A stretch of 64,000 nucleotides of DNA from Candidatus Saccharimonadota bacterium (GCA_017514765.1 JAFWIU010000012.1:313-64312), one strand, 5' to 3'. Numbered from the stretch's first letter, positions 11,597 to 56,554 are shown. Translations and numbers: made by a program. Notes: generated by a model not told the origin, from the sequence alone.

Positions 11597-11621
11597 AAAG
11601 TGCTTATGTTATAATGTGGGT

Positions 11622-13313: not shown

Positions 13314-13406
13314 GAAAGTGGGGTTGTGTAAAACTATTAAGAATTTAAAAATAGACGCTAGCGAAATGGAAAAATCTATGATAGTATAGATGAAAGGAGC
13401 AATCAT

Positions 13407-27926: not shown

Positions 27927-29477
27927 TTAAATGCCGGTGAGGGGGGAGATGTCGGCGCCGAGGTGGCGGAGGCGGGCGGCGAAGTCTTGGTAGCCGCGAT
28001 TGATAGGGTAGACGTTACGAAGAATGGATTGGCCGGGGGCGGCGAGCATGCCGATCAGGATGACAACAGCGGGACGGAGTGCTTGCGGAGCAACGAGCTC
28101 GGTGGGGCGCCAGTTGGTGGGTCCTTCGATGTAGACGCGGTGAGCGTCGAGGAGTTCGACTTTAACGTTGAGATTGGCGAGTTCAGTAGTGTAAACGGCG
28201 CGGTTTTCGAAGACCCAGTCGTGGATAAGAGTACGGCCACTCGCGACAGCAGCGATGACGGAAAAGAAGGGAAGATTGTCAATATTAAGACCTGGGAAAG
28301 GCATGGGGTGAATTTTGTCGACGGGTGCGACGAGGCTGGATTTTTTGATATATAGATCAACGAGGCGGGTGCGATTGTTGGAGGAGAGGTATTCGGGGGA
28401 TTTGTCGATGATAGCATGCATGTTTTTCAAGACTTCGAGTTCGATTTCGAGGAATTCGATGGGTGCGCGCATGATAGTGATTTCGGAGTTGGTAGCAAGG
28501 GCGGCAGTGATGAAACTCATGGCTTCGATGGGGTCTTCAGAGATATTATATTCAACGTCTTGATTGAAGAACGGACGACCTTGAACGACGAGGCGGGTAG
28601 TACCGATGCCGGAAATCTTAACGCCGAGTTGTTCGAGGTAGAAACAAACGTCTTGAACCATGTAGTTAGGCGAGGCGCCGACGATGGTGGTCTTGCCAGG
28701 GGCGAGGGCGGCGGCCATGAGAACGTTTTCAGTGACGGTGTCGCCACGCTCAGTAAGGACAATATAACGGTCGTGGTATTTATGAAGAGTTTCTTGTCGG
28801 ACTTCGACTTCGTAGAAGCCACTATGACATTCGGCGTCAACGGTGAGGCCGAAAGATTTGAGAGCTTGAAGGTGTGGTTCGACGGTGCGAGTACCGAGTG
28901 AACAACCGCCGGCGTAGGGGATTTTGAATCTAGGATAGCGGTGAAGTAGAGGGCCGAGGAACATAATAATAGAGCGGGTACGGCGGGCAGCTTCGATGTC
29001 CATTTCGTCGAGTTTTAATTCGCGGGGTGAGATAATTTCGAGGTCACGATGGCGGTTGGTCCAGTGGCATTTGACACCGATAGATTCCAAAACTTCGATA
29101 ATGCGGAAGACTTCTTCGATGCGGGCGATATGACGAAGGGTGGTCTTGCCGGTGTTGAGAAGGGTGGCACACAGGAGGGCAACGGCAGCGTTTTTGGAAG
29201 TATTGATGGTGATTTCACCGTGCAATTCTTTGCCGCCGCGGATGCGAAAACTTTGTCCAGCTGAGTCATTAACAGAGAGGATTTGGGTGCCGAGAGCTTC
29301 AGAGAGTTTCTTGATCATTTCAAGGGAAATGTTCTGGCCACCTTTTTCGATACGGTGGATGGCGGACTGAGAGGAGCCGACTTGTTCAGCTAATTCTTCT
29401 TGAGTCCAACCTTTTTCGATGCGCATTTGTTCGATGGCCTCACCGATGACTTGTTGATATGACAGTGTTTTCTTCAT
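27927..29477 (-). CDS. murA: UDP-N-acetylglucosamine 1-carboxyvinyltransferase with N-terminal XRE helix-turn-helix
   Basis: N-terminal WTQEELAEQVGSSQSAIHRIEKG; SKNAAVA, GGCSLGTR (catalytic Cys), SEDPIEA, FENR, ALRPA. Confidence 0.9.
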   Translation of the reverse strand: MKKTLSYQQVIGEAIEQMRIEKGWTQEELAEQVGSSQSAIHRIEKGGQNISLEMIKKLSEALGTQILSVNDSAGQSFRIRGGKELHGEITINTSKNAAVALLCATLLNTGKTTLRHIARIEEVFRIIEVLESIGVKCHWTNRHRDLEIISPRELKLDEMDIEAARRTRSIIMFLGPLLHRYPRFKIPYAGGCSLGTRTVEPHLQALKSFGLTVDAECHSGFYEVEVRQETLHKYHDRYIVLTERGDTVTENVLMAAALAPGKTTIVGASPNYMVQDVCFYLEQLGVKISGIGTTRLVVQGRPFFNQDVEYNISEDPIEAMSFITAALATNSEITIMRAPIEFLEIELEVLKNMHAIIDKSPEYLSSNNRTRLVDLYIKKSSLVAPVDKIHPMPFPGLNIDNLPFFSVIAAVASGRTLIHDWVFENRAVYTTELANLNVKVELLDAHRVYIEGPTNWRPTELVAPQALRPAVVILIGMLAAPGQSILRNVYPINRGYQDFAARLRHLGADISPLTGI

Positions 29478-32600: not shown

Positions 32601-33207
32601 GGATACTTATGATCCTATTAATGGTGTATTGGAGGATATCGGATCATTGGACAACCCGATTCATCGTTTTCCGCGATATGATAATAGTCCCAAAAGTAAT
32701 CTTAATGGTATTTCACATACGAGGAATCATGGTAATCCATCAAATAATACTGGTACTTTTCCTGGTAATCTGTATTCTTATGGCGATTTGTACACTTGGA
32801 GTGCGGCGATGGCTAATACATCTCATTATGTTGGAGCGAGGGAGGTAAATGTTGCTGGAGAGATTTCGGAGACTGTGGGTACTTCAATTTGTCCATACGG
32901 TTGGCGTTTGCCAACTGGGGGTAGTTCTACCAAAGAGTTTGCTGCTCTTGCTAAGGCTTATGGTGGGACTGGTGTAAATCAATCTGGTGCAGTGAACTCT
33001 GGTGACGTGATGTCGAACCGTTTGCGAACGTTTCCAAATAACTTTGTTTTTTCTAGAAGTGGTGCTGACGGTAGGTATTGGACTACCTCGAGCTGGAATA
33101 GTTCTAACGGAAATGTCTTTTTCTTAAATAGTACGAGATTAGATCCAACTGAGCATTGGGGTAAGAACTCTGCTTATGCCGTGCGTTGTTTTATGGATGA
33201 ATCTTAA
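29614..33207 (+). CDS. Secreted protein with four InlB-B/Listeria-Bacteroides-like repeats and two FISUMP (Fib_succ_major)-like domains
   Basis: Repeats Y-V-F/YD-NG...LYAQW; FISUMP-like motifs CWM-TNL, YSWAAA, VCPKNWDLP, NVRC and CWMVENL, YTWSAAMA, ICPYGWRLPT, YWT, AVRC. Confidence 0.8.
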   Translation: MLSKRIKNRGIVVVVVMLSFLFACNCDVKTTLAYSASITTSNSIVLNAALISNGTSIHAESINVQSDCRSGYNLTIAVPEGSDLYRYDNGNQAVNASFTAVDGVSALNSSNNTNKWGYTLTNDANASTVFYPLSSNESVLKTSTQTASASDINDTFSIYYGVKTDNTIEPGVYQMANNGSVVYYLTMDVTCTQYTVSFDPNGGTVTSGGNNPTQAIQQGELTNLNSAELLQAPTAASYTDADNNTINGDADKVWVFWGWNTKVDGTGDWYKDKEAVENLTAAGTTITLYAQWKQATLIDLAVGTQVGTEKVIDHNTMQDMSAGICYNSTAYSIDTSSDAYSPYNASTNPNGYHTVTLNDYRGKVTVGENLELPEQYNVSRLADGLCWMTTNLNLGRSGTDGPNGDGTVTLTSEDSDLANNATFALPAHSTTSSTANNTARIRITNNDGNNDNGVFYSWAAAVAGVVSNPTVSVCPKNWDLPNRAQYDNLQTKMDYKSGNSPTSLPGAFLLSGGFTNGATFYQTSYGHLWTTQPSTSAAYGARIESARVLTSLTSNTTYGGNKYYEKNVRCVASKGRATVNYDGNGTTEYPVTGSTSSQVNVEINSTNTRASSGFIRTGWIFKNWNTASDGSGVAIAASTALSALNIKPSDTITLYAQWTPVYKITYVNNCATYNTGCTTTTSNTTSIQNINLTSYPSGGTESGTLGAFDKFTQSGWKIKEWTTNADGTGTSYLISSSYTVPSGSAPGDGITLYAHWVPVYSIQYDGNGADNPDGMGTTNASGVKAVRHINVSGGDPVTFIASNFKRTGYGFVGWSTDPDAWTHFMDNDSTNDSVIYGPMETISAPADSGNNTSTMTVYAVWVEAEKDGNNNPIYLQDFTGSDCSALTGTEFDTNTGAISVGEVIALTDKRDNEVYAVAKLADDHCWMVENLRLESAGTLGNNINDSSVTNQSLAQGYGGITGRNGNFVGLANPESSSSWNSTASNSIYKSSASTPLDTYDPINGVLEDIGSLDNPIHRFPRYDNSPKSNLNGISHTRNHGNPSNNTGTFPGNLYSYGDLYTWSAAMANTSHYVGAREVNVAGEISETVGTSICPYGWRLPTGGSSTKEFAALAKAYGGTGVNQSGAVNSGDVMSNRLRTFPNNFVFSRSGADGRYWTTSSWNSSNGNVFFLNSTRLDPTEHWGKNSAYAVRCFMDES

Positions 33208-43610: not shown

Positions 43611-43697
43611 TGGTGCCCGAGACAGGGGTTGAACCTGCACGATATTGCTATCACTAGCACCTGAAGCTAGCGCGTCTGCCAATTCCGCCACTCGGGC
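43611..43697 (-). tRNA. tRNA-Leu(CAG)
   Basis: GCCCGAG/CTCGGGC, CTAGC-TTCAGGT-GCTAG, long variable arm, CCA. Confidence 0.95.
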
Positions 43698-43718: not shown

Positions 43719-44660
43719 TTACTTCGTAATGATAGTGCCGGCTTTGCCGGAGAGGGCTGCGGCGAGGTGGTCGATATCTGTAATGATGCCGATACGGTTG
43801 GGTTTTTTGGCAAATTCGGTAGTAGCTTCGATTTTGGGAAGCATGGAGCCGGCTTTGAAATAGCCTTCCTTGATGTATTTGGCGAGTTCTTTGGTGGTAA
43901 TCTTGTGGATGGGTTGGGCGTCTGGTTGTCCGAAGTTAATATAGGCATTGGGTACCGCAGTGACGGAGACGAAAACGTCGGCGTTGACTTCTTCGGCGAG
44001 GCGTTCGGCGGCGAAATCTTTGTCAATGACGGCATCGATGCCTTTGAGGCGTTTTAGAACTTTGGTGCGATAGACGGGAATACCACCACCGCCGGCGGCG
44101 ATAACAATGACACCATCTTTAATTAATTCACGGATAGTACGTTTTTCGACAATGTCGATGGGCTTGGGTGAGGCGACGACGCGGCGCCAACCACGTCCAG
44201 CGTCTTCCTTGACGACCCAATGATTGACTTTGGCGAGAGCTTTGGCTTGTTTTTCGTTATAGAATTGGCCGATGGGTTTGGTGGGGTTACGAAAAGCGGG
44301 ATCGTTTACGTCGACAACAACTTGCGAAATAATGGTGGCGACTTTACGGTGTTGGTTTTTCTGAGCGAAGGCGTTATGGATGGCTTGAGTGAGCCAATAG
44401 CCGATTTGTCCTTGACTCATTGCGACGGCAGTTTCGAGCGGCATAGCGGGGGCTTTGTCGGTAGAGGCTTGTTCTTCGTGAATGAGGATGTTACCGACTT
44501 GAGGGCCATTACCGTGAGCGATGACAATTTCGTATTTGTGAGCTAATGCAGCAACAACGGTGCCAACAATGTTAGCAACCTTCTTCTGAGCTTCAGCGGT
44601 GACTTCGCCGTTTTTCTGTAGGGCGTTACCACCAAGTGCTAAGACGATACGTTTTTTCAT
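43719..44660 (-). CDS. arcC: Carbamate kinase
   Basis: VLALGGNAL, HGNGPQVG, SQGQIGY, GWRRVVASP, GGGGIPV, VIDKD, GSMLPKI. Confidence 0.96.
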   Translation of the reverse strand: MKKRIVLALGGNALQKNGEVTAEAQKKVANIVGTVVAALAHKYEIVIAHGNGPQVGNILIHEEQASTDKAPAMPLETAVAMSQGQIGYWLTQAIHNAFAQKNQHRKVATIISQVVVDVNDPAFRNPTKPIGQFYNEKQAKALAKVNHWVVKEDAGRGWRRVVASPKPIDIVEKRTIRELIKDGVIVIAAGGGGIPVYRTKVLKRLKGIDAVIDKDFAAERLAEEVNADVFVSVTAVPNAYINFGQPDAQPIHKITTKELAKYIKEGYFKAGSMLPKIEATTEFAKKPNRIGIITDIDHLAAALSGKAGTIITK

Positions 44661-44704
44661 AATAAATTTATTATATCATAAAAGCTTATGTTATAATGTA
44701 ATAT

Positions 44705-47700
44705 ATGGTAAAAAGGTTTTTGACACTAGCGACTGTTGCACTATCTGCTGTGATGATATATGGAGTGGCAAATGCTTTTGTGATACCAGAAAACCTTCTG
44801 AAAGAGTATTCGGCTAATGATATTTATTTCATAGATCCGTGCGCGAGTGGCGCGAATAGCAATCGTGGTAATGGCTGTGTGGGGACTTTGCCAGGCAGTA
44901 ATAATGCGGAGCTGACCTGGAATGCGATTGTGGAGGCAAATGTGGACGGTGTGTCGAATAACCCAGCGGCGATTGCGGGGATAATGGGGAATTTGATGCA
45001 GGAGACGGGGTTTGATCCGTTTGAGCAAAAGGGAAAATATTATGGTATTCATATGACTCCGGATCAGGAGTTTATTGATGTAATAAATAATGCAGGACTT
45101 GGTCAATATTGGGGACGTGGTAATGAAGCGCCAAAAGAGGCTGTGAAGCAGGCGATAGAGTTGGAAATCAATTGGATTATGAAGACGAACGAGAGGTTTT
45201 TGGGTGTAGGAACATGGGAAGGCAGAGGCTTTATGAGCTTTGTGAATGATGTGTCAGAGAATACGCCGGAGGCTTATTCTGATTTATTTCTGACGGCTGT
45301 AGAAGATGCTGATTGGCCTAGCTCACAGAGTCAATGGAAGGGTAATAATATAATAGAGGAACCAGCGGCGAAGGAGGTGGGTAGGAGGGTTCGTGGTGAA
45401 GAAATGTATTATCAGGAAGCAGAAGTGAGGCGTGATTACGCGAGGGAGTTTTATGAAAAGTATGGTTCGTCTGGCGTGTGTAATCTAGGGGGAGCGTTTA
45501 ATGGAACTGAAGTGACGTGGCAAGATTTGGCGCCCTTGGGTACTAATGATAGGTTGAAGCTGTTGGTGGAGCGTTATGGCGAGTACGCAATGCAATTACA
45601 GAAGTATTATGGGATACCGTGGGAATTGCCGTTTGCGGTGATGGTGTTTGAGTCGGAGGTGGGTACTAATACCAATAGTGTTTCGTATTTAGTGCAACAA
45701 GCTGGTTATTATAATATGATGGGGCTAACGTACCCGGTGCCGGGGGAACATGAGGAATATGTAGTGGATAGATATCGGGTGACAAATGCGGGTGACAATG
45801 GGTGCTTTAGAAACGAAAAGTATAAGCAATGTCACGTAGCATATGAATCGATATCTAAGATGTTGCTAGGGTATACGATTTATCATGGTCGGAGCGGCTA
45901 CGAGGGGGATGCGTCATATGATGGTGGATTAAAGTTGCTTTCGCCAAGTAATTACAATTTAAATGACGCAATAAAGAAACTAATGCATTCTTATTGTGGT
46001 ACTACTACATCTTCGACTTACTGTGGTGATGGAACTGGTATTACTGATGTTATTAGGGGAGGGACATCAAGGCTGGCAAAAGACTATAGCGGGTTAATGG
46101 ATGTGGTAAAAGAAAAGGGATGGATGAACTCGGAAGAGTTAGCGAAGGCTTGGAATATCCAACCGGGTGGGATAGCGACGCAGCAGTGGGGATGGGGTGA
46201 TATTAGGGAACAAATTTGGAATGCTTATGGTGAAGCAGGATTACCTGGTAATGCATCAGCTACAACTGGAGCGACTTCGATTACTGGTGGAACTGCAAGC
46301 ACTGGAACTATGAGTGGCTCACTAGTGGGAAATGCGGTACTGCATAAGCCGCAAAATGAGTGGTTGGAAAACGCTGGTTTGGAAGGATATATTAAGGATC
46401 CGGTAACACCGGGGGGAGCTAACGGTATAAGAGTTGATTCGAGCGCTTCAGATGGTTCGAATTATACGGAATTTGCAAGTGATGCAGGAGCTGGATCGGG
46501 ATTACCAGGATTTATAGTGTTACATTTAACGGAGGCGGATAACTTTGATAAGAGGTCTTGGCAGAACTTTAAAGGTGATGGTGTATATGTGCCGCCACAT
46601 TTTACAATTGATGTGAAAAAACGAGAGGTTTTCCAGCATTTTCCGTTATCTCATCCATCGGCGGCGGTGAAGAGGCGTAATGGTATGGTACCGGATAAGT
46701 ATGGTATTCAAATCGAAATTGTGGGTCATGGTGGCGACGATAGAGGAGACAATCTTGAAACATGTATACATGGTGCTTGCAGTGATGAATATAACTTTAG
46801 AAACTTCACGGAGGAGGACTACGAATATCTCGCTAAGCTACTAATTGCGATTAGTAATGAGACTGGGATTCCTTTGACTAGCTCGGTTCAGTGGGCGAAG
46901 ACGGCGGAGGAAGCGCCGAGTTTAATAATAAAAGATGACGAAGAATTAAAAAAGTATATTGGTGTGCTTGGTCATACACATGTGAACGGGAAATGGGACC
47001 CACTGAATCTATGGGAATACCTTGAGCCGGTATTAGCAAAAATGGGCTATAGTTATAATACGAGTGCGTATAGTAATTCGGTTAATTGTGGGAATAGTGG
47101 TCTAGGTGCTACTTTGTTACGTGGACATTGTTTTGATATCCCGAGTGGTGATGGTGGATGTACTGAAGATGGATTTACATGGTTTGGACAAGGCGGCGAC
47201 TCGTGGAGTACAAAACAGTACGGTAAGAAATGCGGTGGTTCTACTATGAGATCGTCTGGATGTGGTCCATCGGCGATGGCGATGGTGGTTACAGCGTTGA
47301 CTGGTCAATTAGTGAAACCGGATGAGATGGCTGAAAAAGCGGATGAAGTAGGCGCAAGAATATGTGGTAGCGGTACTGACGTTGTAACAATGACAACAAA
47401 AATAGCTCCTATGTATGGATTGCAAGCACAGTGTGTTCCGTCTTCTCAAGTAACTGTTGATAATGTAAACAAATGGTTTGATGAGGGTAAAATGGCTGTT
47501 TTCTCTGTTGGTAATGAGTACTCTACTGAGTTTGGTCCGATGGGATCTGCTAACGGTCATGTAGTAGCCTTACGTGGAAGGGCAAGTGATGGTAAATGGT
47601 ATACTTTTGATAGTTCGCGCCGAGATGTGCCAAAGAATGACAGACATTATAAGCCCGAGGAGGTAGTGAAGGCGTTCCAAGCGCATGGAAGGGACAATTT

Positions 47701-47719
47701 CTGTCTAGTGTATAAGTAG
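44705..47719 (+). CDS. Secreted multi-domain cell-wall hydrolase (lysozyme-like, glucosaminidase-like, amidase_2-like, C39-like peptidase)
   Basis: Signal; AGIMGNLMQETG; IPWELPFAVMVFES...YNMMGL; IVLHLTE...HFTID...IQIEIVG...GHTHV...DP; SGCGPSAMAMVVT...GHVVAL...DS. Confidence 0.75.
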   Translation: MVKRFLTLATVALSAVMIYGVANAFVIPENLLKEYSANDIYFIDPCASGANSNRGNGCVGTLPGSNNAELTWNAIVEANVDGVSNNPAAIAGIMGNLMQETGFDPFEQKGKYYGIHMTPDQEFIDVINNAGLGQYWGRGNEAPKEAVKQAIELEINWIMKTNERFLGVGTWEGRGFMSFVNDVSENTPEAYSDLFLTAVEDADWPSSQSQWKGNNIIEEPAAKEVGRRVRGEEMYYQEAEVRRDYAREFYEKYGSSGVCNLGGAFNGTEVTWQDLAPLGTNDRLKLLVERYGEYAMQLQKYYGIPWELPFAVMVFESEVGTNTNSVSYLVQQAGYYNMMGLTYPVPGEHEEYVVDRYRVTNAGDNGCFRNEKYKQCHVAYESISKMLLGYTIYHGRSGYEGDASYDGGLKLLSPSNYNLNDAIKKLMHSYCGTTTSSTYCGDGTGITDVIRGGTSRLAKDYSGLMDVVKEKGWMNSEELAKAWNIQPGGIATQQWGWGDIREQIWNAYGEAGLPGNASATTGATSITGGTASTGTMSGSLVGNAVLHKPQNEWLENAGLEGYIKDPVTPGGANGIRVDSSASDGSNYTEFASDAGAGSGLPGFIVLHLTEADNFDKRSWQNFKGDGVYVPPHFTIDVKKREVFQHFPLSHPSAAVKRRNGMVPDKYGIQIEIVGHGGDDRGDNLETCIHGACSDEYNFRNFTEEDYEYLAKLLIAISNETGIPLTSSVQWAKTAEEAPSLIIKDDEELKKYIGVLGHTHVNGKWDPLNLWEYLEPVLAKMGYSYNTSAYSNSVNCGNSGLGATLLRGHCFDIPSGDGGCTEDGFTWFGQGGDSWSTKQYGKKCGGSTMRSSGCGPSAMAMVVTALTGQLVKPDEMAEKADEVGARICGSGTDVVTMTTKIAPMYGLQAQCVPSSQVTVDNVNKWFDEGKMAVFSVGNEYSTEFGPMGSANGHVVALRGRASDGKWYTFDSSRRDVPKNDRHYKPEEVVKAFQAHGRDNFCLVYK

Positions 47720-47731
47720 GAGGAATGTGAT

Positions 47732-48322
47732 ATGAACAAGAAAACAGAGAAAAAACTAAAAGAGTTTGGTGAGTGGTTGGTGTCGCCACTTGGCACGATT
47801 GTGGCGGTAGTGATATTGATAGCAATAATACTGGTAGTGGTATCAGTTAATCTGGTACGTAAGACAATAATAGATGGCGAAGCGGAATGGCTGTATGAAG
47901 AATATGATCCAGCTTCGGATACCATAATGAAGGTCATGGCACCAACCAATGATGAGTCGGATGGACCAGATTATGTAGGATTTAATGTGTTGTTTGACAA
48001 TGGTGTAACGAGTGCACAATTTGCCTTATTTGAAGATGCGGTAAGCGGGTATGCAGCGAGTAAGGAAATGGAATTAACTCGAGTAAGTTATCTGAAGGAC
48101 AGCTATAGTTTGGCTGCGTCGTATGTGTTTGATTTTAAGGTCGTGCTTAATAAAGATCAAGAGACGCTGAAAGTACGAATAGATAGTTCGGCGGGGTGGA
48201 AGGATGTGATGGGTGCAAAAGTGGAACTTTGGAATGAAAATGGGGATTTGGTGTTTGAGCTAAGTGTGGATGATAGTAATATTTGCAACTATTTTAGCGA
48301 TGCTGAATGTGGGGATAACTAG
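47732..48322 (+). CDS. Hypothetical single-pass membrane protein, co-oriented with the hydrolase
   Basis: One N-terminal TM, acidic soluble domain; 12 nt after hydrolase stop with AGGAGG SD. Confidence 0.7.
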   Translation: MNKKTEKKLKEFGEWLVSPLGTIVAVVILIAIILVVVSVNLVRKTIIDGEAEWLYEEYDPASDTIMKVMAPTNDESDGPDYVGFNVLFDNGVTSAQFALFEDAVSGYAASKEMELTRVSYLKDSYSLAASYVFDFKVVLNKDQETLKVRIDSSAGWKDVMGAKVELWNENGDLVFELSVDDSNICNYFSDAECGDN

Positions 48323-48336
48323 GTTTATTTGAATTA

Positions 48337-48371
48337 AAACGCTTGCGCTTAAAAACAACTTAATATATAAT
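48337..48371 (+). promoter_or_regulatory. Promoter of agmatine deiminase operon with AAAACGCTTGCGCTTA motif
   Basis: TTGCGC (48343-48348), 17 nt, TATAAT (48366-48371); the same 16-mer occurs at 52012-52027. Confidence 0.7.
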
Positions 48372-48378
48372 GTGGGTT

Positions 48379-49413
48379 ATGGATAGGTATACTTTGCGGC
48401 ATAAAGAGCCGACAAAAAAAGATTTTATTGACACGGCGGATTTTGATCAGTCGGAAATAGTTGATATTATTAGAACTTCTCGTATAGTGAGAGAATATAT
48501 TAAAGCGGGTGGGTATTTGAATACTTTGTATCATAAGACGCTAGCGATGATTTTTGAGCAAAAATCGACCAGAACTAGAGTATCGTTTGAAACGGCGATG
48601 GTGCAGTTGGGCGGTCATGCTTTGAATTTGGCACCGGGTGCAATTCAGCTTGGTGCGCATGAGACGATTGAAGACACAGCAGTGGTGCTAGGCCGGATGT
48701 GCGATATGATTATGTCGCGTGTAGATAGACATGAGTCGATTGAGGCGCTCGCCAAATATGCTCAGGTTCCGGTGATAAATGGCATGAGTGACAAAGTCCA
48801 TCCAACGCAGGGAGTTGGTGATATGATTACAGTGTTTGACCATTGGCCGGCAGGAAAGAAACCAAATGAGATAAAATTTGTATTCGTGGGCGATGCAACA
48901 CAAGTATGTAATACTTTGTGTGATATTACGACGAAGCTCGGATTTAATTTTGTGCATTATGGGCCAGAGAATCATAAGCTTGCGGATGAGTGGCTAGAAA
49001 TTGGTCGTAAAAATGCGGAAAAATATGGTGGTTCGGCGGTGTGGTCGGAAGATCCGGAAGTTCTGAAAGGTGCTGATTTCATTTATACGGATGTATGGTA
49101 TGGTCTTTATGATAAAGAAACGCCTAAAGAAGAGTACATGAAGGATTTTTATCCAAAATACCAAGTAAATGACGAGATGATGCAGGCGACTGAGAATCCG
49201 AATTGTAAGTTCATGCATTGTTTGCCAGCAAATCGAAACGAAGAAGTAACGGATTCGGTGTTAGACGGACCGAATTCGGCAGCTTGGGATGAGGCAGAAA
49301 ACCGTCTGACGGCTCAGCGTGGGCTGGTATTATATTTCGGTCGAGTGGCGCAGGAAGCGCTCGATGAAATTAAATTACAAAAGGAGGCGAAAGATGCCAA
49401 AAAAGAAATATAA
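48379..49413 (+). CDS. ptcA: Putrescine carbamoyltransferase
   Basis: STRTRVSFE, HPTQ, YTDVWYGLY, MHCLPA, DEAENRL; sits first in an aguB-aguD-aguA arrangement; start reassigned to ATG 48379. Confidence 0.85.
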   Translation: MDRYTLRHKEPTKKDFIDTADFDQSEIVDIIRTSRIVREYIKAGGYLNTLYHKTLAMIFEQKSTRTRVSFETAMVQLGGHALNLAPGAIQLGAHETIEDTAVVLGRMCDMIMSRVDRHESIEALAKYAQVPVINGMSDKVHPTQGVGDMITVFDHWPAGKKPNEIKFVFVGDATQVCNTLCDITTKLGFNFVHYGPENHKLADEWLEIGRKNAEKYGGSAVWSEDPEVLKGADFIYTDVWYGLYDKETPKEEYMKDFYPKYQVNDEMMQATENPNCKFMHCLPANRNEEVTDSVLDGPNSAAWDEAENRLTAQRGLVLYFGRVAQEALDEIKLQKEAKDAKKEI

Positions 49414-50842
49414 GTTCAGGCTGTTTTCGGCAGTGCTTGCAACAGTCTGTATAATCTTGGTGGGAGATGCCGTAGCACCTACTGCAGCCATCGGTAATTC
49501 GATGTATGTGTGGTGGGCGATTATGCTGATTGGTTTCTTCGTACCATATGCGCTGATTAGCGCAGAACTCGGTACACAGTATCCATCGGAAGGTGGGATG
49601 TATACTTGGATTAAGAAAGCCTTTGGTAAGAAGTGGGCTTCGAGAGTTGCTTGGTTCTACTGGGTGAATTATCCGCTGTGGATTGCGTCTCTGGCCGATC
49701 TTATTACTACATTGATTATGCAGATGTTTGGCATCGAGATGGAAATCTGGATAGTACTTGCGATTCAGGTTGCCTATATTGCGCTCGTGACGATTCTGGG
49801 GATGTTGCGCATCTCGCAGTCTGACTGGGTATCGAACATTGGTGCGATCATCAAGATTATGATTCTTGCCACAATTGGTTTTCTTGGGTTTTATGTGTTG
49901 TTTACAAAAGGTACAGCAAATCCGGTTGAATCATGGCATGACTTGGTGCCTCTAGCATCAGCAGATGGGGGAATAGACTGGGCAGGTTTGTCATTTGTAT
50001 CGCTGATTATCTTTAACATGCTTGGGTTTGAAGTGGTTGGTACGTTCTATGATGACATGGATAAACCAAAAACGCAGATTCCAAAAGCGATTATTCTCGG
50101 TGGGATTTTGATTGCGATTTTCTACATTTTGCCATCGTTTGGTATGGGCGTAGGAACATCGTTTGAAGAAATCCAAACCAACACCGGGTTGCTTGATTCG
50201 TATAATGTGTTGATGTTGAACGCTGGGTTTACAGAGGCGGCGATTCAGGCAGTGACGATTGTGGTAGGTGGTTTGTTTATACTTACTTTGATTTCGAACG
50301 TTTCGTCGTGGAACTTCGGGGTGTATTCAGTGATTGCGTGTGCAGCGGAAGATGGGATGTTCCCGAAGTCTTGGAAGAAGCGCAACAAAGATGGTGTGCC
50401 GTATATGGTAGGTATCTGGACTGGTATTGTTGCAGCAGTTTTGGCTGTGGCGGGTATCATTCTGGCTTATTGTTTCCCAGAATGGGAAGATGGCGCAAAT
50501 ATGTTCTGGGCATTCTTCGATGTATCACTAGTTTGTTTATTGTTATCATATATTCCGATGTTTGCAGCGTTTATTAAACTGCACAAAAAAGGCCCACAGG
50601 TCAAGAATGGCTACTGGCTAAAGGTGGGACCGGTGATGAGATGGTTGATGGGTGTAATACCATTAATACTACTCGGTATATCACTGCTCTTTACTTTGGT
50701 GCCAGAATTTTCGTGGGAAGCAATTCAGGACAATGCTACACTACTAATCTCTTCGGGTATCTGTGTCGTGATTGGTGAAATTATGGTATTTAATATGGCT
50801 CAAAAAGATAAAAGGAAGAAATTAGCACGGAGTAGAAGATAA
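49394..50842 (+). CDS. aguD: Agmatine/putrescine antiporter (APC family)
   Basis: About 12 TMs, AELGTQYPSEGGMYTW, GFEVV; between ptcA and aguA; start at MPKKKY after AAGGAGG. Confidence 0.8.
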   Translation: MPKKKYKFRLFSAVLATVCIILVGDAVAPTAAIGNSMYVWWAIMLIGFFVPYALISAELGTQYPSEGGMYTWIKKAFGKKWASRVAWFYWVNYPLWIASLADLITTLIMQMFGIEMEIWIVLAIQVAYIALVTILGMLRISQSDWVSNIGAIIKIMILATIGFLGFYVLFTKGTANPVESWHDLVPLASADGGIDWAGLSFVSLIIFNMLGFEVVGTFYDDMDKPKTQIPKAIILGGILIAIFYILPSFGMGVGTSFEEIQTNTGLLDSYNVLMLNAGFTEAAIQAVTIVVGGLFILTLISNVSSWNFGVYSVIACAAEDGMFPKSWKKRNKDGVPYMVGIWTGIVAAVLAVAGIILAYCFPEWEDGANMFWAFFDVSLVCLLLSYIPMFAAFIKLHKKGPQVKNGYWLKVGPVMRWLMGVIPLILLGISLLFTLVPEFSWEAIQDNATLLISSGICVVIGEIMVFNMAQKDKRKKLARSRR

Positions 50843-50845
50843 TTT

Positions 50846-50878
50846 AAAAAAATATCTCCTTTCGGGGAGATATTTTTT
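50846..50878 (+). terminator. Hairpin between aguD and aguA
   Basis: AAAAAATATCTCCT-TTCG-GGGAGATATTTTTT. Confidence 0.65.
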
Positions 50879-50910
50879 GTGCTATTATGGTATCTAAGGA
50901 GGTAATATTT

Positions 50911-52005
50911 ATGAGACTTAATTCAACACCGAAACAAGATGGGTTTTATATGCCATCGGAGCTTGCGGAGCACAAATGCACGTATTTATTGTGGCCAGAG
51001 CGACCAGATAATTGGCGAGGGGGAGCGAAGCCGGCGCAGAAAGCATTTCGAGAAGTAGTGGAAAAAATTGCTAAACATGAGCCGGTGGTACTAGGTGTAA
51101 ATCAATCGCAATATTCGCATGTACTCGGCATGAATATGGAAAATGTTTCGGTAGTGGAGATTTCGAATAATGATTCGTGGATTCGGGATACGGGTGCTAC
51201 GATGGTAGTGAATAATAATGGCGAAATGCGTGCGGTAGACTGGGGATTTAATGGTTATGGTGGATTAGTAAATGGGATTTATTTTCCGTGGGATCTGGAT
51301 GATATGATAGCCAGTAAAATGGCGGCAATTGAAAGGGTGGATAGGTATCGGACGGATGATTTTGTGCTTGAAGGCGGTTCGGTACATACGGATGGCGAAG
51401 GGACATTGCTAGTGACAGAAGAGACTTTACTAGATGAAGGGCGTAATCCTGGTAAAAGTAAAGAAGAGATTGAACGGTATTTATTAGACTATTGTGGTGC
51501 AGAGAAAGTTTTGTGGGTACCTTATGGTGTGTATAAAGATGAAGACACTAATGGACATGTAGATAATATTTGCCAGTTTGTGGCACCTGGTAAAGTAGTG
51601 CTAGCGTGGGAAGATAACCCAGAAGATCCACAACATGAGCGTTCGGCGAAGGATTTGGAGTATCTTGAAAGTGTAACTGATGCGCGTGGTCGAAAGCTTG
51701 AAATTATCAAAATCCATGTACCGAATGTAATTACGATTACAAAAGAAGAATCAGAAGGTGTAGATGTAGTGGAGGGGACGTTCCCACGTAACGAAGGTGA
51801 TAGATTGCCAGCATCATATATTAATTACTATAATTGTAACGGTGCAGTTATTTTGCCAGTATTTAATGATCCGCACGATGAGGAAGCAGTGCGAGTATTG
51901 CAGGAGTGTTTCCCAGATAAGGTGATTGAAACTGTATATGCGCGTGAGATATTGTTAGGGGGTGGAAATATCCATTGTATTACACAGCAAGTACCGAAGG
52001 TCTAA
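50911..52005 (+). CDS. aguA: Agmatine deiminase
   Basis: WPERPDNWR, WIRDTG, LEGGS, DTNGHVDN, ASYINYY, GGNIHCITQQ; start ATG 50911 after AAGGAGG. Confidence 0.95.
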   Translation: MRLNSTPKQDGFYMPSELAEHKCTYLLWPERPDNWRGGAKPAQKAFREVVEKIAKHEPVVLGVNQSQYSHVLGMNMENVSVVEISNNDSWIRDTGATMVVNNNGEMRAVDWGFNGYGGLVNGIYFPWDLDDMIASKMAAIERVDRYRTDDFVLEGGSVHTDGEGTLLVTEETLLDEGRNPGKSKEEIERYLLDYCGAEKVLWVPYGVYKDEDTNGHVDNICQFVAPGKVVLAWEDNPEDPQHERSAKDLEYLESVTDARGRKLEIIKIHVPNVITITKEESEGVDVVEGTFPRNEGDRLPASYINYYNCNGAVILPVFNDPHDEEAVRVLQECFPDKVIETVYAREILLGGGNIHCITQQVPKV

Positions 52006-52011
52006 TAATAC

Positions 52012-52047
52012 AAAACGCTTGCGCTTAGAATAAACATCATATATAAT
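52012..52047 (+). promoter_or_regulatory. Promoter of arginine deiminase operon with the same AAAACGCTTGCGCTTA motif
   Basis: TTGCGC (52019-52024), 17 nt, TATAAT (52042-52047). Confidence 0.7.
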
Positions 52048-52069
52048 GGGTAATATAAACAAGGGCATC

Positions 52070-53074
52070 ATGATGGATTTCTATGGAAAAGATTTTTTGA
52101 GAATACTCGACTTTAGTGAGAACGAGCTTCACTATATGTTGGCTATGTCGAAAAAATTTAAAGAAATGAAACGAGAAAAGGTAAATCATAAGTATTTCCC
52201 AGATAAGAATATTGCGATTTTATTTGAGAAGACTTCGACGCGAACAAGATGTAGCTTTGAAGTGGCGGGATATGATCTTGGTATGGGGGTAACTTTCCTT
52301 GATCCATCGGGTTCACAGATGGGGCACAAGGAATCGATTGCGGATACGGCTAGAGTGCTCGCCAAGATATATGACGGGATTGAGTACCGGGGATTTGATC
52401 AGAAGGTGGTGGATGATTTAGCGAAATACGCTGATGTGCCAGTATGGAATGGTTTGACTGATGAGTGTCACCCGACGCAAGCTTTGGCGGATTTCATGAC
52501 TATGGAAGAGCATTTTGGACATTTGAAGGGATTGACGCTTGCGTTTGTGGGTGACACGAGAAACAATGTGGGTAATTCTTTGATGGCGATGAGTGCTAAG
52601 ATGGGCGTGAATTATATTGCCTGTGGTCCGGACAGTTTGAAGCCGTCGGATGAGATGGTAAAGAAATGTCAACCAATTGCCGAAAAGAACGGCTCTACTA
52701 TTACGATAACAAGCAATATTAATGATTTGGCTGGAAAAGCAGACGTATTATATACGGATGTATGGTTATCACTTGGTGAGGATGCGGCAAAATGGGGTGA
52801 AAGGATTAAATTATTGGAGCCGTATCGGGTAACAATGAAGATGATGGATTTAGCAAAGCCGACTTCGGTGTTTTTGCATTGTTTGCCGTCATTTCATGAT
52901 TTGAATACTTCGATTGCGCGTGATGTACATGAGAAATTTGGTTTGACAGAAATGGAAGTAGCAAATGAGGTGTTTGAGTCTAATCGTTCGTTGGTGTTTG
53001 AAGAAGCGGAAAACCGTATGCATACAATTAAAGCAATCATGTTCTTAACACTATATAATAAGGAGGCAAAATAA
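52070..53074 (+). CDS. arcB: Catabolic ornithine carbamoyltransferase
   Basis: STRTRCSFE, GIEYRG, HPTQALAD, YTDVW, HCLP, EAENRMHTIKA; track start 52046 overlaps the -10 box. Confidence 0.93.
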   Translation: MMDFYGKDFLRILDFSENELHYMLAMSKKFKEMKREKVNHKYFPDKNIAILFEKTSTRTRCSFEVAGYDLGMGVTFLDPSGSQMGHKESIADTARVLAKIYDGIEYRGFDQKVVDDLAKYADVPVWNGLTDECHPTQALADFMTMEEHFGHLKGLTLAFVGDTRNNVGNSLMAMSAKMGVNYIACGPDSLKPSDEMVKKCQPIAEKNGSTITITSNINDLAGKADVLYTDVWLSLGEDAAKWGERIKLLEPYRVTMKMMDLAKPTSVFLHCLPSFHDLNTSIARDVHEKFGLTEMEVANEVFESNRSLVFEEAENRMHTIKAIMFLTLYNKEAK

Positions 53075-54303
53075 TGAAGAATATCATTTCGAATTTTAGC
53101 GAGATAGCGCCACTTAAAAAGGTGTTAATGCATCGGCCTGGGGATGAGTTTTTGAATTTGACTCCGAATACGCTTGATAGATTGTTGTTTGATGATATTC
53201 CGTATCTCAAGAAGGCTCAGGAAGAGCATGATGCTTTCGCGAATGCTTTGAGGTCTGAGGGGGTGGAAGTGGTTTACTTGGTAGATTTAGTGGCGGAAGC
53301 GATTGAGGCTGGCGGTAGAACGGTGCGAAGGAAATTCTTGGAACAATTTATTGCAGAAGCTGGTGTGACTTCGCCTAAAGTAGTGAAGCATTGTTATGAT
53401 TACCTGAATGGGTTTAAAGACACGAAGGATATGGTGCGAAAATGTATTGCGGGTATTGATATTTCGGAATTGAAGAAGTTAGGCAGCGTGTCAGGGTTTT
53501 ATGCAACGCGTGATACGGGAAGAATGATTATTGATCCAATTCCAAATATTTTGTTCCAACGTGACCCAATGGCAACCGTAGGACATGGTGCGACGCTACA
53601 TCGAATGTGGTCAGTGACTAGGACACGGGAATCGATTTTTATGGAATACGTCTATCAATATCATCCATTCTATGATGATGTGAAATTGTATTATGATAGA
53701 AGTGAACCTTATTGCGTTGAAGGTGGGGATATTGAAGTATTGTCGTCGGAGGTGGTTGCGATTGGGATTTCGCAGCGAACTGAACCTGATGCGATTGCGA
53801 GTTTTGCGAAACGGTTATTCAAGGATAAAACAAATAACTTTAAATATGTTTTAGCGATTGATATTCCGGACGAAAGAAGCTTTATGCATTTGGATACAGT
53901 GATGACGCAGGTTGACGTAGATAAGTTTGCGGTGCAAGATGCGATTATGGATATATCGACTATTTACGAGATAACACCAGGACGTGGTGGTGAGGTTGAA
54001 ATAGTGGAAGTGCATCAAGGATTGCAGAAAGTACTTGAAAAATATCTGCATCTCAACAAGGTTGAACTAATTAAGTGTGGCAATGGTAGGAGAATCGATG
54101 CAGAACGTGAACAATGGAGTGACGGTGTGAATTTGATTTGTATTAGGCCAGGTGTGGCGATTGCATATGATCGTAATTTCGTGACAAATCAGGCTTTGAA
54201 GAAGCATGGGATGAAGATTATTGAGATTCCAAGTTCCGAACTTTCGCGCGGGCGAGGTGGCTCGCACTGTATGACGATGGCGCTCGTTAGAGAGGAGGCT
54301 TGA
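53074..54303 (+). CDS. arcA: Arginine deiminase
   Basis: SEIAPLKKVLMHRPG, LLFDDIP, FQRDP, EGGD, MHLDTV, EQWSDG, SELSRGRGGSHCMT. Confidence 0.96.
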   Translation: MKNIISNFSEIAPLKKVLMHRPGDEFLNLTPNTLDRLLFDDIPYLKKAQEEHDAFANALRSEGVEVVYLVDLVAEAIEAGGRTVRRKFLEQFIAEAGVTSPKVVKHCYDYLNGFKDTKDMVRKCIAGIDISELKKLGSVSGFYATRDTGRMIIDPIPNILFQRDPMATVGHGATLHRMWSVTRTRESIFMEYVYQYHPFYDDVKLYYDRSEPYCVEGGDIEVLSSEVVAIGISQRTEPDAIASFAKRLFKDKTNNFKYVLAIDIPDERSFMHLDTVMTQVDVDKFAVQDAIMDISTIYEITPGRGGEVEIVEVHQGLQKVLEKYLHLNKVELIKCGNGRRIDAEREQWSDGVNLICIRPGVAIAYDRNFVTNQALKKHGMKIIEIPSSELSRGRGGSHCMTMALVREEA

Positions 54304-54373
54304 GTTCGGGAGGTAAATAGTAGTAACGTTGAGAAAATCTAAAACAATACAAAACATACAAAAAGGAAAAACT

Positions 54374-54517
54374 ATGAAAATAAATATTAAAACCAGAAGG
54401 ACAATTAACGTACATGAGGTGAAGACGATTGCATTTAGGGATATTAAGACAATTAATTTGATGCAGATTAATAGACAGGCTGTGATGGGGGAAAATATTA
54501 ACGTAAAAAGGATCTAA
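54374..54517 (+). CDS. Possible 47-aa peptide with 8-residue periodicity
   Basis: AAGGAAAA upstream of ATG; units RTINVHEV/KTIAFRDI/KTINLMQI; stops 1 nt before the transporter ATG. Confidence 0.35.
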   Translation: MKINIKTRRTINVHEVKTIAFRDIKTINLMQINRQAVMGENINVKRI

Positions 54518-54518
54518 A

Positions 54519-56363
54519 ATGTTTAAAAAGAAGAATCGAAGTAAAAGACGAAGTCGAGCGATGCTTTCGGCGTATTCGATTATCATGATTCTGATTATAC
54601 TGTTGGGTGTTTTGTCACATGTACTTCCAAAAGCAAAATATGCTCCAGTCGGATTGGATGATGATAGTGCGAGTGTCGAAGTTGGTCCAGGTGAGTGGGA
54701 AGGTGAAGCACCGGCTGGTGGTTCTGATGCCCTTCAGTCTGGCGAGCAAGCGGAAGAGTTGACATTGCCTGAAGGTGAGTCTTTTACGCCTGAGGTGGGC
54801 GATGAGGTAACCGATGAGGATTTGTCGACAGAGAAAAGTCGCATGATTACGGATGAGCCGGTTTCTGATGACGAGATGTCCAATCGAAGCGTTGAGGCTA
54901 GTGAAGACGTAGTGATGGCCGGTGAAGAAGTGACGACTACCGGTGAAAGCGAAGATGTAATGCTGATTGTCTCAGCCGAGAGCGAGACTTATGAGACGCT
55001 AGAGGCTTGCGAAGAGATTTATGGTGAAGATGGATGCGAAGTCGTGGACGGATCTGGTGTAGTAGGTGCAAAGTTGTATCAAGTATTGATGGCGCCTATT
55101 CTAGGGTTCGCCGATGCGATTGATGTGTGTATCTTTATTATGATGCTTGGTGGTTTGCTTGCGGTTGTGTCTAAGACAAAAGCTCTGGAAACCGGTATTA
55201 AGTTATTAGTGCATAAACTGCATGGTAAGGAATACTTGTTAATTGTATTGCTAATGTTTATCTTTTCGATACTTGGTACTACTTACGGGTTCCTTGAGGA
55301 AAGTGTCGGGTTCTATGTGCTAATTGCGGCGACAATGTTCGCGGCGGGTTTGGATCCGTTGGTGGGTGTCGCAACAATTCTCTTAGGCGCCGGTTCTGGT
55401 GTGTTAGGGTCTACGATTAACCCATTTGCAACTGGCGTGGCACTTTCGGCGATGAAGGATGCAGGAATTGAGTTTAGTCAGGGTACGGTGATTTTGATTG
55501 CTGTAGTATTGTGGCTAACTACACTTGCGATTTCGGCATTCTTTGTGATTAAGTATGCTAAGAAAGTGCAGCGTGATAAAGGCTCGACGTTCTTGAGTTT
55601 GCGTGAGCAAGCGGCAGCCGAGAAGACTTACGGCAAGTTTTTGCGGGCACAAGGTGATGCAGCGAAGTTGACTGGTAAGCAGATTGCGACATTGGTAGTG
55701 TTTGCGATTACGTTCCTAGTGATGATTGTTGGGTTTATTCCTTGGGGTGAGTTTGGTATTACCTTCTTTGATTCCTGGACGGGATGGCTTACTGGTGCAT
55801 CGCTGGGTAACTGGTGGTTCTACGAAGCGTCACTCTGGTTCCTCATTTGTGCAATTATTATCGCAATTATTAATCGTCAGGGTGAACACGGATTTGTAGA
55901 CGCCTTTGTAGACGGTGCGGATGATATGATTGGGGTGGCTCTTGTGATTGCAGTGGCACGTGGCGCATCGGTCTTGATGGCCGAGACTTCACTTGATAAC
56001 TTTATCATCGTGAACGCCGCGGAAGGTCTAAGGAATTTGCCTGAAATGGCATTTGTGCCTTTGAACTACCTACTTCACGTGGTGTTGTCGGTATTGGTAC
56101 CATCATCTTCGGGTCTCGCAACTTTATCAACGCCAATTATTGCGCCGGTGGCAGCAAATCTTGGTTACAGTACCGATGTAGCAGCAATGACAATTGTGGC
56201 AGCAAATGGTCTTGTAAACTTGATTACACCAACCTGTGGTGCAATTATGGGTGGCCTCGCACTTGCTAGAGTTGATTACTCCACTTGGTTTAAGTGGGGA
56301 ATGAGGGCGGTCGCATGTATAGCAGTAGTTAATATCATAGTGCTTTGTTTGTTCTCGCTATAG
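54519..56363 (+). CDS. YfcC/ArcD-type putative arginine/ornithine antiporter with large acidic loop insertion
   Basis: SAYSIIMILII, YGFLEESVGFY, GSTINPFATG, VPSSSGLA, LITPT; follows arcA. Confidence 0.8.
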   Translation: MFKKKNRSKRRSRAMLSAYSIIMILIILLGVLSHVLPKAKYAPVGLDDDSASVEVGPGEWEGEAPAGGSDALQSGEQAEELTLPEGESFTPEVGDEVTDEDLSTEKSRMITDEPVSDDEMSNRSVEASEDVVMAGEEVTTTGESEDVMLIVSAESETYETLEACEEIYGEDGCEVVDGSGVVGAKLYQVLMAPILGFADAIDVCIFIMMLGGLLAVVSKTKALETGIKLLVHKLHGKEYLLIVLLMFIFSILGTTYGFLEESVGFYVLIAATMFAAGLDPLVGVATILLGAGSGVLGSTINPFATGVALSAMKDAGIEFSQGTVILIAVVLWLTTLAISAFFVIKYAKKVQRDKGSTFLSLREQAAAEKTYGKFLRAQGDAAKLTGKQIATLVVFAITFLVMIVGFIPWGEFGITFFDSWTGWLTGASLGNWWFYEASLWFLICAIIIAIINRQGEHGFVDAFVDGADDMIGVALVIAVARGASVLMAETSLDNFIIVNAAEGLRNLPEMAFVPLNYLLHVVLSVLVPSSSGLATLSTPIIAPVAANLGYSTDVAAMTIVAANGLVNLITPTCGAIMGGLALARVDYSTWFKWGMRAVACIAVVNIIVLCLFSL

Positions 56364-56554
56364 AACAACAAAAAGGTGTTTTCTAAAGCTTGGACTTTTA
56401 AACTGTAAGACCTGCAACACAAGGTAAGAAAAAATCTCCTTATTCGCCCTTCGGGCTGAGGGAGATTTTTTCGTTGTTGAGTTGCAGAGCTTACAGTTTA
56501 GAAATCTGGTCTAAATCTCATTATGCTTTAGAAAACACCTTTTTGTTATTCTAT
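56360..56554. mobile_element. MITE-like long nested inverted repeat (~195 bp)
   Basis: Perfect 23-bp IR AACAAAAAGGTGTTTTCTAAAGC (56367-56389) / 56525-56547, extendable to ~30 bp with 1 mismatch; inner arms AAACTGTAAG, CTGCAAC, GAAAAAATCTCC; central TTCG loop. Confidence 0.55.

Follow-up and report, generated by a model that had tools for sequence, protein, structure and literature searches.

Does a gut bacterium of the Saccharibacteria that carries the genes of two carbamoyl phosphate-yielding pathways around a single carbamate kinase gene draw ATP from agmatine as well as from arginine? The question is raised by positions 43719-56363 of a 64,000-nucleotide (nt) stretch of DNA from a Candidatus Saccharimonadota bacterium (GCA_017514765.1 JAFWIU010000012.1:313-64312), referred to here in its full length as the window. 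At this locus, the ptcA, aguD and aguA genes of an agmatine deiminase pathway (AgDI) are followed by the arcB, arcA and antiporter genes of an arginine deiminase system (ADS), with arcC on the opposite strand. The locus is likely to form a compact unit for turning carbamoyl phosphate into ATP, in which the AgDI and ADS modules of an animal-gut, Nanosyncoccus-like Saccharibacterium feed one carbamate kinase. By the established chemistry of the two pathways, AguA in the agmatine branch hydrolyses agmatine to N-carbamoylputrescine and ammonia, and PtcA cleaves N-carbamoylputrescine with inorganic phosphate (phosphorolysis) into putrescine and carbamoyl phosphate. In the arginine branch, ArcA hydrolyses arginine to citrulline and ammonia, and ArcB converts citrulline and inorganic phosphate to ornithine and carbamoyl phosphate. 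Both branches end with ArcC, which uses carbamoyl phosphate and ADP to form ATP, CO2 and ammonia.

Gene content and layout of the locus

The initial annotation of this DNA, made from the sequence alone, had named arcC, ptcA, aguD, aguA, arcB, arcA and an antiporter gene, and open reading frame (ORF) and family searches found all of them intact and in the places it had given. Its single divergent arcC, about 3.7 kb from ptcA, is likewise present, the distance being measured from the arcC start. With E-values between 1e-115 and 1e-160, chance can be ruled out for the gene assignments. The features of the locus are as follows.

43719-44660, minus strand: arcC, carbamate kinase, 313 amino acids (TIGR00746, 384.8 bits, cut-off 358.25)
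44705-48322, plus strand: cargo outside the pathway, a cell-wall hydrolase (44705-47719) and a 196-amino-acid ORF (47732-48322)
48340-48378, plus strand: promoter-like stretch upstream of ptcA, with TATAAT at 48366-48371
48379-49413, plus strand: ptcA, putrescine carbamoyltransferase of a variant with a short C-terminal tail, 344 amino acids, assigned from matches to PDB entries and specificity residues
49394-50842, plus strand: aguD, permease of the APC superfamily, 482 amino acids, predicted agmatine/putrescine antiporter (PF13520, 157 bits)
50887-52005, plus strand: aguA, agmatine deiminase, 372 amino acids (TIGR03380, 526.8 bits, cut-off 381.8)
52046-53074, plus strand: arcB, catabolic ornithine carbamoyltransferase, 342 amino acids (TIGR00658, 394.4 bits, cut-off 280.85)
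53074-54303, plus strand: arcA, arginine deiminase, 409 amino acids (NF002381, 454.6 bits, cut-off 414; PF02274, 373 bits)
54374-54517, plus strand: conserved 47-codon ORF, of the same length in 7 loci
54519-56363, plus strand: arcD/arcE-type transporter of the DcuC/YfcC family, 614 amino acids, predicted arginine/ornithine antiporter (PF03606, 265 bits)
56370-56550, no strand assigned: near-perfect 180-nt hairpin between the arcD/E-type gene and gpmI

Two of the starts differ from those in the ORF list. The ptcA frame is listed as 48370-49413, and its true start is probably the ATG at 48379, matching both a 344-amino-acid database twin (P0001) and the closest related locus (L002). The aguD frame is listed from a GTG at 49319, and its start is placed at the in-frame ATG at 49394 because a perfect AAGGAGG lies 7 nt upstream of that codon; read from there, aguD shares 20 nt with the end of ptcA. 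From ptcA to arcA the genes are packed closely, with the ptcA/aguD overlap followed by gaps of 44 and 40 nt and by an overlap of arcB and arcA, and this tight spacing suggests that they form one transcript.

The assignments within the two modules are supported gene by gene. AguA exceeds a second curated cut-off besides that of TIGR03380 (NF010070, 531.7 bits, cut-off 483) and aligns over its full length with the Enterococcus faecalis enzyme 2jer (392 bits). All positions aligned by phmmer to C357, H218, D220, D96 and E157 of 2jer_A are conserved, and these we take to be the catalytic Cys-His-Glu residues (C357, H218, E157) and the guanidinium-binding Asp residues (D96, D220). Among annotated proteins AguD, for which there is no equivalog model, is closest (39-44% identity) to the permeases whose genes stand between ptcA and aguA in Listeria monocytogenes, E. 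faecalis, Loigolactobacillus backii and Secundilactobacillus, so that by position and sequence it is the putative counterpart of the Bacilli ptcA-X-aguA permease, and agmatine/putrescine exchange is its predicted function. ArcA passes the NF002381 cut-off, while its TIGR01078 score (461 bits) lies below the cut-off of 489; at least 120 database clusters match it at 88% identity or more and, where named, are called 'arginine deiminase [Candidatus Saccharibacteria bacterium]'. The arcD/E-type transporter scores 157.8 bits with NF008611 (YfcC), under the cut-off of 500, and its gene follows arcA in every related ADS locus. The saccharibacterium TM7x has arcE at the equivalent position and requires it for producing ammonia and ATP in an arginine-dependent manner (PMC12815258).

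ArcC matches the PDB carbamate kinases 1e19 and 1b7b with 301-309 bits, and its gene is the only one of the AA_kinase family among the scanned window ORFs, which extend from 574 to 62313. The same identity, 91%, links it to the arcC of L097, a locus with ADS only, and to the arcC of L002, where both modules are present. Comparison of ArcC sequences was uninformative as to the origin of the kinase, which stands at roughly the same distance from E. faecalis AguC (48%), E. faecalis ArcC1 and the Pyrococcus carbamate kinase. A domain search of the same ORFs returned no ArgR, LuxR/GerE-type AguR or Crp/Fnr-type regulator, bearing out the earlier statement that neither aguR nor argR is in the window. 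The hydrolase and the 196-amino-acid ORF were considered as regulators and rejected, the two products being secreted or membrane-anchored and neither having a DNA-binding domain.

Putrescine or ornithine as the substrate of PtcA

The agmatine module would serve fermentation only if PtcA is a putrescine carbamoyltransferase (PTC), and the alternative is that it acts in practice as a second ornithine carbamoyltransferase (OTC), in which case aguA and the permease gene would not be there for the fermentative catabolism of agmatine. The traits that set PTCs apart have been defined by Polo et al. (2012; PMC3282769) and comprise STRT and HCLP motifs with loss of the OTC Lys at position -2 of STRT (Gln50), a 230-loop of the form (Y/W)(G/W)(V/L/I)X replacing the xSMG of OTCs, and a C-terminal extension of about 20 residues that forms helix 13 and bears the hydrophobic signature (L/f/v/i/m)xx(F/Y/L/M/v)(L/i/m), called constant in PTCs in its form LxxFL. 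Replacing YGLY by VSMG in the E. faecalis enzyme abolished its preference for putrescine, deletion of helix 13 left activity near normal, and ornithine is a poor substrate of the enzyme itself (PMC3282769).

The PtcA of the window carries FEQK-STRT, with Gln at -2, together with DVWYGLY and HCLP. The ArcB encoded in the same locus carries FEKT-STRT, with the OTC Lys at -2, and DVWLSLG where OTCs have the SMG loop. Among solved structures, PtcA is closest to the four entries of E. faecalis PTC (377-381 bits, with 3txx/4a8h at 380), whereas the best OTC reaches 245 bits, and it is 56-59% identical to the PTCs of Enterococcus and Listeria. Its traits are shared by the 120 closest database relatives listed, in which EQK-STRT (120/120), YGLY (117/120) and HCLP (120/120) are near-constant. 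When 50%-identity representatives were searched exhaustively, the full-length matches that scored best (54-56% identity) all had QS-STRT and YGLY, and proteins with the OTC signature scored below those of the PTC type.

Several features would fit the OTC alternative. PtcA scores 460.6 bits with the PTC family TIGR04384, short of the cut-off of 500, whereas the OTC family TIGR00658 (313 bits) passes its own cut-off, even though TIGR04384 remains the top-scoring family. The C-terminal extension past the OTC end is short, its end falling, by residue count, near E. faecalis residue 334 in the window and near 328 in most relatives, and the tail of PtcA lacks the hydrophobic signature of helix 13. 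An additional Lys stands at -1 of STRT. Most NCBI records of this protein are named 'ornithine carbamoyltransferase [Candidatus Saccharibacteria bacterium]', the name 'putrescine carbamoyltransferase' being found in at least one Saccharibacteria metagenome-assembled genome (MAG). Both the score below the TIGR04384 cut-off and the NCBI naming probably reflect divergence of the lineage. On the other side stand the PDB scores (about 380 bits for PTC and 245 for the best OTC) and the presence in PtcA of both traits shown by experiment to govern putrescine preference, the Gln at the position of Q50 and the YGLY loop, the loss of which ended that preference in E. faecalis when loss of helix 13 barely changed activity (PMC3282769). 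Furthermore, a true OTC, ArcB, is encoded 2.6 kb downstream of ptcA, and ptcA is linked to aguD-aguA in every locus where the linkage can be judged. Judged by its residues, PtcA thus has the decisive traits of putrescine specificity, and the trait it lacks appears unneeded for catalysis, since the E. faecalis deletion left activity near normal. Some OTC activity may accompany the PTC role, as the E. faecalis enzyme also uses ornithine, if poorly; that PtcA is in practice a second OTC is very unlikely.

Two further observations concern the lineage as a whole. The Lys at -1 of STRT occurs in all 120 Saccharibacteria relatives listed (P0001-P0120), Bacilli PTCs having Ser at this position, and the tails of the same 120 proteins mostly end in ...LDYIKQQKEAK, again without the helix-13 signature.

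Distribution, age and surroundings of the locus

The source lineage belongs to the gut Saccharibacteria and is Nanosyncoccus-like (G3). Its nearest protein relatives come from MAGs of Candidatus Saccharibacteria and Ca. Nanosyncoccus from ruminant gastrointestinal tracts, the metagenome runs that contain the window sequence are from gut and bovine gut, and Ca. Nanosyncoccus is placed within Ca. Saccharimonadota in the NCBI taxonomy. An AguA scan of one genome per GTDB species confirmed 178 loci, and comparisons use the best 80 (75-96% identity), each viewed ±8-10 kb around its anchor. These 80 all belong to Saccharibacteria/Nanosyncoccus or to unlabelled bins with the same synteny and are mostly from ruminant gut; one of them (L019) is from the published genome of Ca. 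Nanosyncoccus alces. The cluster is therefore no peculiarity of this organism; it is widespread in public Nanosyncoccus-like genomes. Among the roughly 38 AgDI loci with RGIG labels, about 29 come from the small intestine (jejunum, ileum, duodenum) and 2 from the rumen, as raw counts, uncorrected for sampling effort.

The order ptcA-aguD-aguA is collinear and on one strand in all 72 informative loci, the remaining 8 of the 80 being cut by a contig end. A single arcC was found in 61 of the 80 and never two; it lies directly upstream of ptcA (<400 bp) in 45 loci (29 co-directional, 16 divergent), has 1.7-4.4 kb of cargo between itself and ptcA in 14, and stands downstream of aguA in 2. Downstream of the module, gpmI is present in 75 of the 80. 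In 9-10 of these AguA-anchored loci, arcB-arcA-arcD is also present, in the arcC-ptcA or the aguA-gpmI interval. Approached from ArcA, database contexts read pepN-pgi-arcC-arcB-arcA-arcD-gpmI-ntp-clpC with no agu genes; among ArcA-anchored metagenome contigs, ADS stands alone in 11 loci that are fully flanked and in 20 that are partial, and a single locus (L110) has both modules. The slot pepN-pgi-[arcC …]-gpmI-ntp-clpC hence holds ADS only, AgDI only or both, with a single arcC as its constant gene in the loci examined. The state with both modules is that of a minority, about 5-12% of loci; it is this co-occurrence that makes the window unusual, most relatives having either ADS or AgDI in the slot. 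A reading of AgDI as the core and of ADS as a rare addition was rejected as an ascertainment bias of AguA anchoring, because sampling anchored on ArcA reveals that loci with ADS alone occupy this slot and are at least comparably numerous. A separate group of ArcA proteins at 64-65% identity (L114-L125), from other organisms, is encoded in arcA-arcB pairs with neither arcC nor arcD nearby.

The trees made here are single-gene or three-gene neighbour-joining trees without support values, reliable in their gross pattern only, and in the gpmI tree that pattern consists of one deep clade of about 25 AgDI-only species and another clade that interleaves the three states, sister taxa differing in theirs. 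Sister pairs include L019 (AgDI) with L095 (ADS), L001 (AgDI) with L137 (ADS), and L035 (both) with L090 (ADS). Such interleaving implies repeated gain, loss or exchange of the modules.

Within the lineage, divergence among the AgDI genes runs deep. Median identity to the window is 86.8% for AguA, 81.9% for PtcA, 78.6% for AguD and 88.5% for ArcA, compared with 69% for gpmI, 70% for pgi and 88% for ClpC in the flanks. That AguA, PtcA and ArcA are more conserved than the products of the flanking gpmI and pgi genes indicates that they are under purifying selection, and the high conservation of the catabolic genes, combined with their native composition, argues for an old resident in use and against either fresh transfer or decay. 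All 120 listed database matches of PtcA are from Saccharibacteria. In a plasmid collection, it is Bacilli that supply the best annotated matches (PtcA 53-60%, AguA 49-60%, AguD 39-44%), those from Vibrio and Photobacterium being more distant, which points to a putative Bacillota-type origin of the AgDI genes, as has been proposed for the Saccharibacteria ADS (Tian et al.).

The gene order and these Bacilli matches (53-59% for PtcA, 49-60% for AguA, 39-44% for AguD in the best annotated cases) could also be put down to a recent gain from a Firmicute by this organism, to a chimeric contig or to mis-binned Firmicute DNA. The distances do not favour this, identities being 40-60% to Bacilli and 62-96% among Saccharibacteria, and the same synteny with pgi and gpmI flanks recurs in dozens of independent MAGs. 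Metagenome contigs of independent runs cover the junctions without mismatches. The window has a GC content of 41-50% and a strong, uniform GC skew, and both properties are the same in the cluster as in its flanks. At its beginning lie a 23S rRNA gene, represented by its 3' end, and a 5S gene, and it further holds eight tRNA genes and housekeeping genes (nusA, RNase J, ligA, pcrA/uvrD, pgk, pyk, ftsH, pepN, pgi, gpmI and clpC). A recent or artefactual origin of the cluster is accordingly extremely improbable, and long residence in the lineage is the reading retained.

The junctions of the modules hold elements of their own. The cargo hydrolase (1004 amino acids) has a signal peptide and Phage_lysozyme2, Amidase_2 and Peptidase_C39_2 domains (Pfam), and the 196-amino-acid ORF has an N-terminal transmembrane anchor. 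Neither had a tblastn match in any of the 80 related loci, and arcC and ptcA are only 59 nt apart in L002, so that the pair is a private insertion into the divergent arcC/ptcA promoter region; it may encode a cell-wall-attacking effector of the epibiont. The block before ptcA (48340-48378) recurs in L002, its TATAAT ending 7 nt before the ATG at 48379, and a promoter at this point is put forward as a lead only, the generic promoter scan not rising above chance there. Between arcC and ptcA, three other loci encode a polar-amino-acid-type ABC importer with SBP_bac_3, permease and ATPase components (L033:3113-5461, L035:3144-5472, L048:3000-5300). Further cargo at the arcC|ptcA or aguA|gpmI junctions of other species includes large secreted proteins of subtilase-dockerin and BspA-type leucine-rich-repeat kinds and a TrbL-like protein. 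Both junctions are insertion hot spots.

Between arcA and the arcD/E-type gene lies the 47-codon ORF, MKINIKTRRTINVHEVKTIAFRDIKTINLMQINRQAVMGENINVKRI, the stop of which is 1 nt before the start codon of the transporter. It has equal length in 7 loci, with no indel and no internal stop, and its variation is biased to the third codon position (22, 22 and 38 variable columns at the first, second and third positions). It is missing where the arcA-arcD gap is only 55 nt, and a Pfam search with it returned no match. The hairpin at 56370-56550 has a folding energy of -91.3 kcal/mol (z = -13.7) and is single-copy in the window. Copies of it occupy the same junction in the ADS-only loci L092 and L105, the aguA-gpmI gap in L052 and a position downstream of gpmI in L004, and metagenome contig depth is about 200 at the hairpin and about 14 in its flanks. 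It is possibly a terminator or insulator, or else a small palindromic mobile element.

Elsewhere in the window, a tRNA-Leu(CAG) gene (43611-43697, minus strand) lies between pgi and arcC, directly downstream of arcC. A 516-amino-acid ORF (27927-29477, minus strand) has the unusual architecture of an N-terminal XRE-type HTH_3 domain joined to an EPSP-synthase/MurA-family domain. Surface-type proteins of very large size, with YDG, Listeria-Bacteroides repeat and Fib_succ_major domains, and a subtilase that carries a type I dockerin are encoded in the plus-strand regions 11616-16964 and 29614-33207, and the dockerin hints at attachment to cohesin-bearing gut partners. At 17042-18308 (plus strand), a 258-amino-acid Pyr_redox_2 ORF overlaps the next ORF of 166 amino acids, which has no family match; the two may stem from a thioredoxin-reductase-like gene that is split or frameshifted, or from an error of sequencing.

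Proposed function and comparison with known systems

In the mechanism proposed for the locus, AguD would bring in agmatine and release putrescine. AguA would convert the agmatine to N-carbamoylputrescine and ammonia, from which PtcA would produce putrescine and carbamoyl phosphate. The DcuC/YfcC-type antiporter would take up arginine and expel ornithine, ArcA would yield citrulline and ammonia, and ArcB would then yield ornithine and carbamoyl phosphate. ArcC would turn the carbamoyl phosphate of both modules into ATP, CO2 and ammonia. The pathway would in this way provide the epibiont with ATP and ammonia, as the ADS does in TM7x, and ATP yield, acid protection, putrescine export and an effect on the host are its possible consequences. 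Modules would be exchanged or lost through recombination between related strains, with arcC and gpmI serving as homology arms.

Several points weigh against this reading, together with the departures of PtcA and the limited reliability of the trees set out above. Enzyme activities and transport specificities in this lineage are inferred from homology. Promoter and terminator scans of the region gave counts not above those of shuffled controls, and the transcription signal consists of one 256-nt ptcA contig from one metatranscriptome run, two RNA-type runs having been examined. The window holds no arginine decarboxylase that could be a source of agmatine. Lastly, beyond the ±8-10 kb viewed there may be another arcC or, in genomes scored as AgDI-only, a copy of the ADS. 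Regarding the source of agmatine, it is plausible by analogy that it would come from arginine-decarboxylating gut bacteria, as in the hybrid pathway of Escherichia coli and E. faecalis (PMC6021145).

A different role for the agmatine genes would be the supply of putrescine, as a polyamine, to a cell of little biosynthetic capacity, with ATP and acid resistance of lesser account. Putrescine is indeed the product of the agmatine route, the NCBI Gene Ontology labels of Bacilli homologues place aguA in putrescine biosynthesis, and ORF scans of the window revealed no polyamine biosynthesis gene. Yet the combination of PTC, carbamate kinase and antiporter is the fermentative, ATP-yielding form of the pathway, the biosynthetic form using N-carbamoylputrescine amidohydrolase (PMC12283126). 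In addition, arcC is tightly linked to the agmatine genes, and the agmatine module sits in the slot of the ADS, the energy pathway of TM7x. Polyamine supply and an energy role are compatible with each other; a mainly polyamine-supplying role is nonetheless improbable, and the energy-yielding reading is preferred.

A broader reading is advanced tentatively, its chances as a whole being rather low. In ruminant-gut Nanosyncoccus-like Saccharibacteria, the modules would be swappable cassettes on one resident carbamate kinase that together make up the main off-host energy pathway, and they would be exchanged among competent relatives, Saccharibacteria being naturally competent (PMC10187176/PMC10633639). 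Species would divide arginine and agmatine niches between them, and AgDI-only lineages would use agmatine from arginine-decarboxylating neighbours, possibly including an acid-stressed host, and return putrescine. Were this so, the energy supply of the epibiont would be coupled to the acid response of its partner.

The agmatine route had been thought not to be an established trait in the Candidate Phyla Radiation (CPR), and this holds for the open-access and bioRxiv literature, a full-text search of which found no paper that connects agmatine deiminase with Saccharibacteria, TM7, Patescibacteria or CPR; the word agmatine does not occur in key papers on Saccharibacteria genomics and ADS. The initial annotation had also considered that the cluster might already be both widespread and described in Saccharibacteria: widespread it is, in Nanosyncoccus-like genomes, whereas no description was found in the searchable literature. 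The route thus appears to be undescribed for the phylum, though common in public genomes. Experimental grounding is rare in Saccharibacteria physiology, and the ADS is among the few parts that have it; a large animal-gut group with the agmatine route in the ADS slot, often in place of the ADS, alters the view of what the energy substrate of these bacteria may be. The agmatine route also predicts release of putrescine into the gut and suggests cross-feeding with arginine-decarboxylating bacteria. For annotation it presents a trap: because the PTC of the lineage does not reach the PTC cut-off and mostly goes under the name of ornithine carbamoyltransferase, gene counts of 'ADS completeness' can score AgDI-only genomes as positive for arcB and arcC. 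The PTC variant lacking the helix-13 signature offers, furthermore, a natural test of the constancy claimed for that helix in PTCs. The finding extends an important theme of Saccharibacteria biology and overturns nothing.

Three known systems bear comparison with the locus. In the cross-species putrescine pathway (Kitada et al. 2018; PMC6021145), E. coli exports agmatine through AdiA/AdiC and E. faecalis consumes it through AgDI, releasing putrescine and ammonia and gaining ATP. That pathway joins free-living bacteria, whereas the consumer represented by the window would be an obligate epibiont, and the likeness is one of analogy only. The ADS of Nanosynbacter lyticus TM7x (arcA, arcB, arcE, arcC) belongs to the same phylum and likewise converts carbamoyl phosphate to ATP and ammonia through one carbamate kinase; it has been shown by experiment to support ATP level, ammonia production, host attachment and infectivity (PMC8764695, PMC12815258). 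TM7x is a human oral G1 organism with ADS only and another gene order, whereas the lineage of the window adds or substitutes an agmatine module, and the two are likened by gene content and position.

The closest counterpart of the agmatine module is the aguBDAC cluster of E. faecalis, with those of Listeria monocytogenes, Loigolactobacillus backii and Secundilactobacillus. The ptcA-permease-aguA order is common to these clusters and the window, and its occurrence in the E. faecalis and Listeria loci agrees with the Enterococcus-type aguB-aguD-aguA order attributed to the locus at the outset. The specificity residues of PTC and the residues at the catalytic positions of AguA are also shared with the E. 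faecalis/Listeria type. The carbamate kinase gene, however, lies downstream of aguA in the E. faecalis type and upstream, co-directional or divergent, in the Saccharibacteria lineage. E. faecalis aguBDAC has a divergent helix-turn-helix regulator, the LuxR-type AguR adjoining the genes in both E. faecalis and Streptococcus mutans, and no regulator of the AguR type was found among the scanned ORFs of the window. The window PtcA differs from the E. faecalis PTC in its truncated C-terminal helix, devoid of the signature, and in the Lys at -1 of STRT. Lastly, unlike the E. faecalis-type AgDI, the operon of the window runs straight into arcB-arcA-arcD/E and shares its kinase with them. Set against these systems, the locus is a canonical pathway in a new phylum, with its own twists in a PTC variant that scores below cut-off and lacks one signature, in one kinase for two modules, and in a species-level mosaic of ADS, AgDI or both.

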